Assembly: GCF_003334405.1 (NCBI RefSeq)
Contig: NZ_QOWM01000001.1
Strand: one strand, 5' to 3'
DNA length: 64,000 nt
Source: Escherichia coli
GTDB taxonomy: Bacteria > Pseudomonadota > Gammaproteobacteria > Enterobacterales > Enterobacteriaceae
Position 1 is the stretch's first letter. Every line of letters begins with the position of its first letter. Shown piece after piece: positions 60,701 through 64,000 of this stretch. The position numbers were made by a program.

Positions 60701-63700
60701 AGCAAAATCGCTATCTTCGGTGTGGTGATGCGTCTGTTCCTCTACGCACCGGTGGGTGACAGCGAAGCGATTCGCGTGGTGCTGGCGATTATCGCCTTTG
60801 CCTCCATCATCTTCGGTAACCTGATGGCGCTGAGCCAGACCAATATCAAACGTCTGCTCGGTTACTCATCTATCTCTCACCTCGGCTATCTGCTGGTAGC
60901 GCTGATTGCGCTGCAAACCGGCGAGATGTCGATGGAAGCGGTAGGGGTTTACCTGGCCGGTTATCTGTTCAGCAGCCTCGGCGCGTTCGGCGTGGTCAGC
61001 CTGATGTCCAGCCCGTATCGTGGCCCGGATGCTGATTCCCTGTTCTCTTACCGCGGTCTGTTCTGGCATCGTCCGATCCTCGCGGCAGTGATGACGGTGA
61101 TGATGCTGTCTCTGGCCGGTATCCCGATGACGCTGGGCTTTATCGGTAAGTTCTACGTGCTGGCGGTCGGTGTCCAGGCACACTTGTGGTGGCTGGTGGG
61201 TGCCGTGGTTGTCGGTTCGGCAATCGGCCTCTACTACTACCTGCGCGTGGCGGTGAGCCTGTATCTTCACGCCCCGGAACAACCGGGTCGCGATGCACCA
61301 TCAAACTGGCAGTACAGCGCGGGCGGTATCGTTGTGCTGATCTCTGCACTGTTGGTACTGGTGCTGGGTGTATGGCCACAACCGCTGATTAGCATTGTGC
61401 GTTTGGCAATGCCGCTGATGTAATCTGTTACTTTGTAAGTCAGAAAGCCGCCGACATGCTCGGCGGTTTTTCTGAAAAAGAAGGGATAGTAGATAGACGC
61501 AGAGCGTTAAGTGAACTGTGTACGACTATCGCCAAAATACTCTAAACATAACTGCCTGAATTTTGCCCGCCATTCATCGATATTAAAATCATAGCGTTCC
61601 TGAAATGCAGTCGTTTCACTGGACATTATCCAGGCATAATTATGTAACAGGGTTAATGCCTGAAGCGGTTTTCTCTGCGCAAAATAAGTATCAACACACA
61701 TCTGCATCAAGGGGTAATTATTATTTTCCTTTGTTCCTCCAAAGCTAAGATCTAATCCTTGTTCTTTAATGCACTGAATCACAGGATCATCCTGGAAATT
61801 CGGGACATCTGCGGCCTGTGACAGCAAATGAATGACTTTATTGTCAGGAACACCAAATGCCCAATTGCCAAGATAAGCATTAAGCGCAGCCTGTGCTGCA
61901 GCTTCTGTTTTTTTACATCGGCGATACTGGATTGCCAGTGCTAACCAATATTCGCTGACTTCAGGCAATTGTTCTGTTGCTCGCTGTAACAGTGGCAGTG
62001 CGTCATCAAGCCTTCCCGTTGAAAGACATTTCCGAGCAACACGGAAGAGATTTGCTGCAAAGTCTTGATCTTCGATGCTGATGCCATTTTCATGGGGATC
62101 ATCATCATTCACTTCCAGCCATTCTTCGAACTTCTTAATGCTGGAAAAGGCAGGTACGATTCGCCATTCGTCATGGTACGTTTCGCACACTATAGGTAGT
62201 TTATGCTCCTGACCAATAGGCCAGTACAAACCGAAACAGTCTCCGTTACCATATGCTGCATCTGTAAGTACGGTAAATCCGTTCGGAGGAAAAGGCCCCG
62301 GGCAAATTCCATCAATGCCAGGTGAAATATCACTACTGCGAGGAATAAGTTTCATCATGTTCCTTCACATAAAAATTTATGTAAACATCCGCTTATCTGT
62401 TTATATAAATGTTTTAATCCCACCAACAAGTAACCGGATGCATACCCACAGGGACTTCAACCCATCCATGCTCCGTATCTTCTGACCATCCTTCCCAGCA
62501 CTCATCAGGGGCAATTTCTTCTACAAACCAGCTCTGAACTTCTTCTGGTGAAGCAGTGGTGATAACTAAAATACTTTCACTAAAGGGCCAGTCTGGGTCA
62601 TCGAACATCGTAATTTCTACCAAAACATCACTAACATTGTTACGCTCACGTATTTTCAGAAAATGGTGATAGATAGCTTGCGGAGATTGTTCTGGAATCA
62701 CATTGCAACATATTGAACCATGGATATTATTGTCAATAAAAAAATCCTCAAGAGATAACAATGGACGAGGAGTATCAGGATTATTAACATCACCATTGAT
62801 ATTAACAAGTTGGGTAATGCGTTCTAAAGGTGTCATAATTATTCCCTGAAATAATATATTCATCAAACGAATGACATTGTTTGAATTCATTAGCAGATAA
62901 ATAGTGACAATTCCATACGTATTATTAGTTTCAAGAGCATCATAACATGAATGTTAAGCAGGAAAACGTGAGATATTCAGTCAGGCCGGGTCGTTATCCA
63001 GACGTTGTTATATTTAATATCATAAATATTTAAAGGGGTTTGACATGGAATGGTTAAGTGAAATTCGTAAACTTCGGAAGAACGTACCTGTCGGTATCCA
63101 GGTTGCCAGACGTTTGTTAGAGAGGACTGGCGGTGATGTTGATGAAGCCATCAAGTTGTTTCATATTGACCAAATCAATATATTGACGGCAAAAGCAGAC
63201 GTCACTCATCAGGAAGCAGAGAATGTTTTGTTGGCTACAAACTATGATATTGCAGAAGCTCTTCGGCGTATTGATGAACAACGCTATACACTGACGGAAT
63301 TGATTTTGCGTAAAAATAAGGATGCCGGAGATGCCTTAAACAATATAGCATTGGCGATTGAATATGAGTGGGATCTCAAGCGTAAGTTTTGGTTTGGTTT
63401 TGCAGATATCCAATTATTACCGCCAGTTTTACAAACATTTATGCTGGTTTATGAATGGCATGAATATGTTGGTTGGGAAGGAATGGAGTGTGGGATATTT
63501 TTTGAAAGTGATCATACTCACCAGCAATTGCAAGCTTTGGGGTTATTAGAACTCGCCCAAAAAATGGTTACTGCAAGAATCCGATATGATGAGCTAAAAG
63601 ACAAGGCCGAAAATTTTCACGAGATTACAGAGGATGACATATTCAAAATGCTTATAATACATTGTGACCAACTTGCAAGAGAGGTTGATTCTATATTACT

Positions 63701-64000
63701 GCAATTTGTGAAGGACAATATTGATGTTTTCCCGTGTCGCCATAACAGACACGAGTTATAAAAAATAATCCCAAAATTGAACAGGCTTTTTATCTACCTG
63801 GTAATGACAGGTTCAATTCCGTTTTCATCAAGCATGACAGATCGTTGCCAGCACAGAGGATATCGCTGTTACATACCGAATATACGGTATTGCATTTAAC
63901 AATGCGACTAAGCAAGCATTTAGTAATATTTATACAAGGGGATAAAAACCGGACCATGGTTAAAGATTTTTTCAAGATGATCCTGGCGTAAATCTTAACT

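Follow-up and report, generated by a model that had tools for sequence, protein, structure and literature searches.

Orphan immunity-gene arrays are clusters without toxin genes, such as the orphan modules of contact-dependent inhibition (CDI) and Rhs systems and the acquired interbacterial defence clusters of Bacteroidales. Polymorphic toxin systems have SMI1/KNR4, also called SUKH, as their archetypal immunity family, and immunity domains occur in addition as multi-immunity-domain fusions and as fusions with tetratricopeptide repeats (TPR) (PMC3482391). Here we compare with such systems a small islet of Escherichia coli that carries the genes yfbP, yfbO and yfbN beside the nuo operon, at the end of a 64,000-nt stretch of contig NZ_QOWM01000001.1 (RefSeq assembly GCF_003334405.1), which is referred to as the window. 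Gene names were set by the 100% megablast identity of the window end to E. coli K-12. The islet lies in a hypervariable chromosomal slot of Enterobacterales, which extends from nuoN to yfbM/rbn, and consists of independent single-gene modules, and our tentative reading is that it may represent an eroding array of independent orphan immunity-type binding proteins. It is already annotated and is no new kind of system, and the new insight is modest.

The distribution of the block was surveyed in 5426 complete E. coli genomes. The whole block was present in 946 of them and any part of it in 1013, and 4311 genomes had a clean nuoN-yfbM junction without the block. The yfbP-yfbO-yfbN block is a true accessory islet, found in under a fifth of E. 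coli genomes. Three states of the slot were observed in the species: empty, K-12 type (at least 99% identity to K-12; 985 carrier genomes) and a rare type 2 haplotype, in which the order is nuoN, yfbO', yfbN', SMI1/KNR4, yfbM, without yfbP, and which was found in its long version in 14 genomes.

Alignment with an empty-site genome placed the left break of the islet at ~61473, directly past the terminator hairpin of nuoN (61444-61473, plus strand), where homology ends after GCCGCCGACATGCTCGGCGGTTTTT. The right break lies at ~64032 in the stop region of yfbM, ~30 bp past the window edge. The islet that the first-pass annotation, made from the sequence alone, had set at 61424-63975 is real, but its borders needed correction and the last part of that range proved to be a pseudogene remnant. 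No target-site duplication and no direct or inverted repeat was found at the borders, no tRNA or integrase at the islet, and tblastn of YfbP, YfbO and YfbN against 50,697 phage records gave no homolog. A recent mobile-element insertion was rejected, because no mobility feature was found and the divergence from the copies in the same slot of other genera is ortholog-like. The earlier step from AT-richness to horizontal acquisition needs qualifying: the islet is not recognisable as a mobile element, and here AT-richness is no sign of a recent arrival, since other genera have the same families in the same slot. Insertion sequence (IS) elements in the islet are secondary insertions or deletions in a few strains only. 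Strain MB51 has an IS903B insertion within the islet, and in NCTC9967 an ISEc52-associated deletion takes most of yfbO, the whole of yfbN and part of yfbM. The PLSDB record CP137936.1 (365 kb) carries yfbP, yfbO and yfbN at 100% identity (279728-281976); this is probably a piece of chromosome wrongly labelled as plasmid and not a case of plasmid carriage. A weak Rfam match to RNAI over the nuoN terminator hairpin (61398-61475, plus strand; 22 bits vs a gathering score of 47, E = 0.41) was judged to be due to chance.

Different combinations of the same families were found in the slot of other enteric bacteria. In Superficieibacter the order is nuoN, yfbN-like, yfbP-like, yfbL; one enteric contig has a yfbO-like gene next to yfbL and no yfbP or yfbN, and on another a yfbN-like gene is the sole cargo between nuoN and rbn. 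The combinations seen are yfbP with yfbN, yfbO alone, yfbN alone, and yfbO with yfbN and SUKH. Outside the slot each family stands alone, for example in Janthinobacterium, Leminorella, Bacteroidota and Planctomycetes. Since the families do not co-occur there, they do not constitute a conserved three-gene system. The cargo genes were AT-rich in every genus looked at. Identity between E. coli and the other enteric slot holders was 61% for YfbP, 69% for YfbO and 46-47% for YfbN, and in the same comparison 62-75% for the flanking non-nuo orthologs (Rbn, ElaA, MenF, YfbL, YfbK). As YfbP and YfbO have diverged about as much as these flanking orthologs, they seem to have resided in the slot for long and to have been lost differentially, with alleles exchanged through homologous recombination in the flanks, and not to have arrived recently. 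The same nuoN-rbn interval contains, ~3.5 kb past the window end, elaD, which encodes a deubiquitinase of the ElaD/SseL family (L001:15124-16335).

A gene assigned to the SUKH family also belongs to the islet, and the K-12 stretch between yfbN and yfbM is, by its alignment, the unannotated remnant of this gene. In strain ETEC6335 the gene is intact and encodes a protein of 190 aa (WP_112843940.1; GC 0.365). When this protein was compared with the window by tblastn, three collinear high-scoring segment pairs were obtained, covering aa 109-190 in three frames and with stops (combined E = 2.4e-17). The remnant lies on the minus strand at 63759-63994, continues to ~64030 past the window and corresponds to C-terminal residues ~105-190; it takes in a 61-aa open reading frame (ORF) at 63790-63975, with which the first delimitation of the block had ended. 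In K-12, ~440 bp of the 5' portion of the gene have been deleted. The remnant was found in ~958 K-12-type genomes and is without annotation in all K-12-type genomes of the listed sample. In strains 48 and DSM 103246 the gene is frameshifted at a G-run. The length of this G-run varies in type 2 (L024:5570-5890, L025:2043-2369, L026:1795-2367), the region being 718, 719 or 720 bp long and the protein either complete (190 aa) or cut short at 106 or 108 aa; slippage-based on/off switching and errors in homopolymer sequencing are both conceivable causes. The intact 190-aa protein had no match by phmmer in the PDB, and the E. coli SUKH protein gave a negative BLASTP result with SUKH_5 proteins, a comparison that is uninformative at such divergence. 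NCBIfam contains no SUKH models, and true SUKH_5 proteins score nothing there either.

YfbO (62414-62836, minus strand, 140 aa, a start supported by RefSeq and by the family) is the name-giving member of Pfam PF27222 and a compact alpha/beta protein. A longer ORF of 158 aa (62414-62890, minus strand) was dropped, since MTPLERIT is the start in 58 of 58 aligned homologs. The precomputed PF27222 label is carried by the E. coli YfbO cluster and by 84 of 85 homologs. Searches of the PDB with the single protein and with the family profile gave no match for YfbO. In the AlphaFold Database its fold is common to many uncharacterised proteins of ~140 aa across phyla, some of them labelled DUF4253, and fusions of it with an SMI1/KNR4 protein and with TPR proteins exist as well. 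These fusions match the fusion habits reported for immunity domains in PMC3482391.

Some of the genomic neighbourhoods of YfbO point in the same direction, with toxin/immunity arrays around YfbO relatives in two unrelated organisms. In a 7.8-Mb genome (L008) the gene order is LHH toxin, SUKH_5, SUKH_5, YfbO, and genes for Tox-REase-5, Imm52 and SUKH_5 precede this group closely. The Priestia relatives, on plasmids and contigs, are found among small genes that form arrays on one strand, and CdiI_ImmP is a member of one such array. Within the type 2 haplotype of E. coli the SMI1/KNR4 gene is two genes away from yfbO'. YfbO was without toxin or immunity neighbours at L009, L010, L012 and L013, and seven further loci gave none with a weak ad hoc phmmer library. 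A scan of 100,044 species genomes returned 8 YfbO loci only. A YfbO 100% identical to the E. coli protein was found on a 2.8-kb contig of a ‘Bacillota bacterium’ metagenome-assembled genome (JAEWTL010000023.1) and is almost certainly E. coli contamination. The polymorphic-toxin literature yielded nothing useful on DUF1877/YfbM or on DUF4253/DUF1963.

YfbP (61507-62355, minus strand) has 282 aa with the RefSeq start; a start at 62358 would instead give an ORF of 283 aa. Its AlphaFold2 model (predicted local distance difference test score, pLDDT, 94.4) consists of an N-domain (aa 1-85, window 62101-62355) with five strands and a helix, and an all-helical C-domain (aa ~100-282, window 61510-62058) that is TPR-like by both its TPR sequence profile and its helical-repeat fold. 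PDB sequence searches with YfbP returned TPR matches only. In the N-domain a G-N-G-D...E...H-D(E) motif is invariant, and 2 of 33 family members had marginal matches to the Pfam model SMI1_KNR4 at E <= 0.1, the best with 2.8e-3; on this basis the N-domain may be SUKH-like. Across 66 sequences the family has 19 invariant positions, among them the polar residues N37, D39, E50, H61, D96, N211, E247, T248 and R254.

The C-domain without the N-domain (219 aa, 47% identity) is found on ~26 conjugative plasmids of Providencia, Proteus and Morganella, beside small unknown genes. The Providencia plasmid pPROV162-1 and ~25 similar ones have two places each that encode it, one of them near RepB by four small hypothetical genes. 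In Leminorella grimontii (L004:8894-15150) three large unknown genes, DUF6384 among them, lie ahead of the yfbP homolog, and seven same-strand genes come after it. Five of the seven are small (125-257 aa) and match nothing in Pfam or NCBIfam; the remaining two encode an Acg-family FMN oxidoreductase and a TetR regulator. This run may be another cargo array. NCBIfam gave no name to the small genes that neighbour the homologs in the arrays of Leminorella, Hymenobacter and Providencia.

For the family of YfbN (63045-63761, plus strand, 238 aa) there are 134 representatives, all of ~240 aa. A conserved N-terminal part (aa ~4-83, window 63054-63293) is followed by a fast-evolving C-terminal part (aa 86-238). 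In a PDB profile search 8 of the 11 best matches were UBA-fold domains, all sub-threshold (E 0.15-1.2), and sub-threshold matches of the N-terminus included residues 6-43 of EF-Ts. Pfam UBA_4 matched YfbN with E = 3.2e-3 and 20 of 61 family members at E <= 0.1, none of these matches being significant. The N-terminus may be a tandem UBA-like pair with an EF-Ts-N-like first unit. Together with the nearby elaD, such a pair might point to a ubiquitin-related theme, which may be coincidental.

Comparison of the type 2 and K-12 haplotypes revealed how unevenly the region has diverged. Amino-acid identity was 100% for the C-terminus of NuoN and for YfbM, 90% for YfbO and 71% for YfbN, and the SUKH gene had 73% nucleotide identity. 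Synonymous divergence (dS) was 0.10 at the 3' end of nuoN, 0.16 in yfbO, 0.20 in yfbN codons 1-85, 1.47 in yfbN codons 86-238 and 0.07 in yfbM. The region is thus a mosaic, with the 3' half of yfbN and the SUKH gene as its deeply divergent core. The ratio of nonsynonymous to synonymous divergence (dN/dS) was 0.32 in yfbO and 0.24 in yfbN, which marks the two as functional genes under purifying selection. The signature of polymorphic toxin/immunity cassettes is a conserved N-terminus joined to an exchanged C-terminus, with a gene of an immunity family alongside. YfbN could accordingly be modular, its N-terminal pair docking on a host factor and its C-terminal domain being swapped as a cassette with the abutting SUKH gene, in which case the two would form an unrecognised intracellular effector-immunity (or sensor-decoy) pair; we regard this idea as a long shot.

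As the first-pass annotation had described, yfbP and yfbO converge on nuoN (59966-61423, plus strand), the upstream neighbour of the block, and yfbN diverges from yfbO. The drop in base composition from the nuo genes into the block was confirmed by sliding-window GC, by GC at third codon positions (GC3) and by codon adaptation. The GC content of the window is 0.52, and its 54 other long ORFs, taken as reference, had a mean GC of 0.528 (sd 0.030) and a mean GC3 of 0.576 (sd 0.060). GC was 0.434 in yfbP (z -3.1), 0.384-0.402 in yfbO (z -4.7) and 0.391 in yfbN (z -4.5), the corresponding GC3 values were 0.37, 0.31 and 0.36 (z -3.4 to -4.4), and codon adaptation, scored against the genes of the window itself, gave z = -2.1, -1.5 and -3.1, respectively. 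The three genes rank as the most AT-rich of the window, and the block is compositionally foreign as well as accessory. ORFs at 397-885, 1423-2244 and 27933-28823 are moderately AT-rich too (GC 0.455-0.466, z ~-2 to -2.4). The most AT-rich part of the block is the 208-bp divergent spacer between yfbO and yfbN (62837-63044), with a sliding-window GC of 0.34-0.36. This spacer had been taken for an AT-rich promoter region of the divergent gene; its AT-richness is evident, but consensus matches of promoter and terminator type across the block, spacer included, were not commoner than in shuffled sequence. No Rfam family matched the spacer.

If the islet is an array of orphan immunity-type proteins, each protein would be cytoplasmic and non-enzymatic and would bind one particular incoming toxin domain 1:1 and neutralise it. 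Such toxin domains would be delivered by the Rhs, CDI or type VI secretion system (T6SS)-type toxins of competitors, and the genes would have been retained in K-12 without any cognate toxin gene. Some lineages would keep the islet and most would lose it, with exchange between lineages by homologous recombination in the conserved flanks. A toxin-binding and toxin-neutralising role of YfbP, YfbO and YfbN themselves is suggested by the resident SUKH gene, by the neighbourhoods and fusions of YfbO and by the architecture of YfbP. The fast evolution of YfbN, both between genera and within E. coli, is counted in favour of an immunity role despite the purifying selection on the gene. No housekeeping or enzyme family was found for any of the three proteins, in agreement with the first pass. 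Its further guess, that the cargo is conflict-related, gains indirect support from the SUKH pseudogene, the YfbO relatives in toxin/immunity arrays and two phage or toxin phenotypes (see below), but known defence-system models do not cover it: no PADLOC component model matched YfbP, YfbO or YfbN at E <= 1. PHROGs and NCBIfam likewise gave nothing significant for the three proteins.

Several observations weigh against an immunity role. E. coli YfbO had no Pfam Imm or SUKH match even at E <= 10, E. coli YfbP no Pfam SMI1_KNR4/SUKH match at E <= 10, and E. coli YfbN no Pfam Imm or SUKH match. With hhalign the YfbP N-domain reached a probability of 3% against SUKH_5 and 0.5% against the E. coli SUKH protein, values that are uninformative at such divergence. 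The SUKH label itself is based on the RefSeq name ‘SMI1/KNR4 family protein’ and on the N-terminal motif ‘LSEAEITAIEQTFNFCFPLDFKAFL’. Known toxin or immunity genes accompany YfbO in ~3/8 of its Pfam-annotated contexts, and in all three families the majority of homologs stand by themselves among housekeeping genes. A cognate toxin is not known, and none adjoins the islet in K-12. A ligand-binding or catalytic site could likewise explain the invariant polar residues of YfbP, and the protein is unusually conserved for an immunity protein. Finally, the phage N4 phenotype described below is not predicted by an immunity role.

Three published studies report phenotypes. Keio deletions of yfbO and of yfbL caused specific resistance to phage N4 that was complemented from plasmids (2025 preprint, 10.1101/2025.09.29.679331). 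In a retron-Sen2 TIC over-expression screen, yfbN scored, at high induction, among the blockers of the toxin RcaT, with yfbO accompanying it through linkage; the blockers of this screen were enriched for horizontally acquired (prophage) genes (10.1101/2020.06.22.160242). Deletion of yfbN raised the yield of recombinant GFP (PMC7376861). None of the studies sets out a mechanism. The proteins might instead serve lineage-specific physiology, as cytoplasmic adaptors or regulators of a host pathway that N4 exploits (for example an envelope or exopolysaccharide pathway involving the peptidase YfbL), with no link to toxins. This would account for the shared and complemented N4 resistance of the yfbO and yfbL deletions and for the effect of yfbN deletion on protein yield, and it is in line with the adjacency of yfbO and yfbL in another enteric bacterium, the many solitary homologs and the many invariant polar residues of YfbP. 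However, ~80% of E. coli genomes lack yfbO yet possess yfbL, so that a core pathway cannot depend on yfbO, and an AT-rich, patchy and fast-evolving pattern with a companion SUKH gene is atypical of physiological adaptors. The N4 data moreover come from a single preprint using Keio/ASKA reagents, and we consider the physiological explanation, although the leading alternative, unlikely. Improbable, in our judgement, is that YfbN, perhaps with YfbO, acts as an antitoxin-like or anti-defence factor, a chromosomal relative of phage blockers directed at the cell's own abortive-infection toxins such as RcaT. The score of yfbN against RcaT, the prophage genes among the other blockers and the fast evolution of YfbN agree with such a role, but the phage records contain no homolog, PHROG and PADLOC matches are lacking, and K-12 is without retron Sen2. 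The yfbN match itself was obtained at high induction only and received no discussion or mechanistic follow-up in the paper.

A coherent unit, in which YfbP, YfbO and YfbN together would make up a novel defence or stress system, is suggested at first sight by three compact adjacent genes of similar AT-rich composition that are gained and lost together in most E. coli. The lack of family co-occurrence outside the enteric slot largely refutes it; combinations differ within the slot as well, gene orientations are mixed and PADLOC offers no match, and we give such a system very little credence. Equally, the erosion of the islet, seen in the SUKH pseudogene, in the IS insertions and deletions of some strains and in its absence from ~80% of genomes, might suggest AT-rich filler made of spurious or decaying ORFs without selected function. 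For the three intact genes this is refuted by the selection and family data, namely dN/dS of 0.24-0.32 between haplotypes and, for each gene, full-length homologs that form a deep family spanning phyla; AlphaFold2 models with pLDDT up to 94 argue likewise, and hardly any probability remains for filler.

If the orphan-immunity reading is true, three long-standing y-genes of K-12 gain a testable hypothesis as toxin-neutralising orphan immunity proteins, PF27222 would join the repertoire of immunity proteins, and such genes would have an enterobacterial hotspot in the nuoN-rbn interval. It would also offer a framework for two unexplained screen phenotypes, the N4 resistance of yfbO mutants and the blocking of RcaT by yfbN. 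A missing K-12 annotation, the SUKH pseudogene between yfbN and yfbM, is supplied.

Altogether, the islet resembles known systems to different degrees. The likeness to UBA and EF-Ts N-terminal (TS-N) domains consists of the N-terminal motif of YfbN and its sub-threshold matches; to our knowledge bacteria do not have ubiquitin, so a partner would have to be some other protein, perhaps EF-Tu. Among small alpha/beta proteins of the PF27222/DUF4253-like kind, membership gives YfbO a name, not a mechanism. With respect to SUKH immunity proteins (PMC3482391), E. coli YfbP, YfbO and YfbN match no SUKH Pfam model and no toxin is adjacent in E. coli, whereas the islet holds an SMI1/KNR4-annotated gene, intact in ETEC6335 and a remnant in K-12, and the YfbP N-domain has a G-x-G-D...H/W-D/E...amphipathic-helix signature resembling theirs. 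TPR-fused immunity proteins (Imm66-Imm69/SUKH with TPR, PMC3482391) differ from YfbP in that its N-domain belongs to no recognised Imm family and its family is highly conserved, but they share with it a small beta-strand N-domain joined to a TPR-like repeat. Compared with orphan immunity arrays, the islet lacks an integrase or recombinase and repeated cassette borders, and has four modules only, and its protective role is putative. Like those arrays, however, it is a variable cluster of small, unrelated, AT-rich genes at a fixed hotspot, subject to presence/absence variation and pseudogenisation, and homologs of its genes lie in similar arrays on plasmids of Priestia and Hymenobacter.

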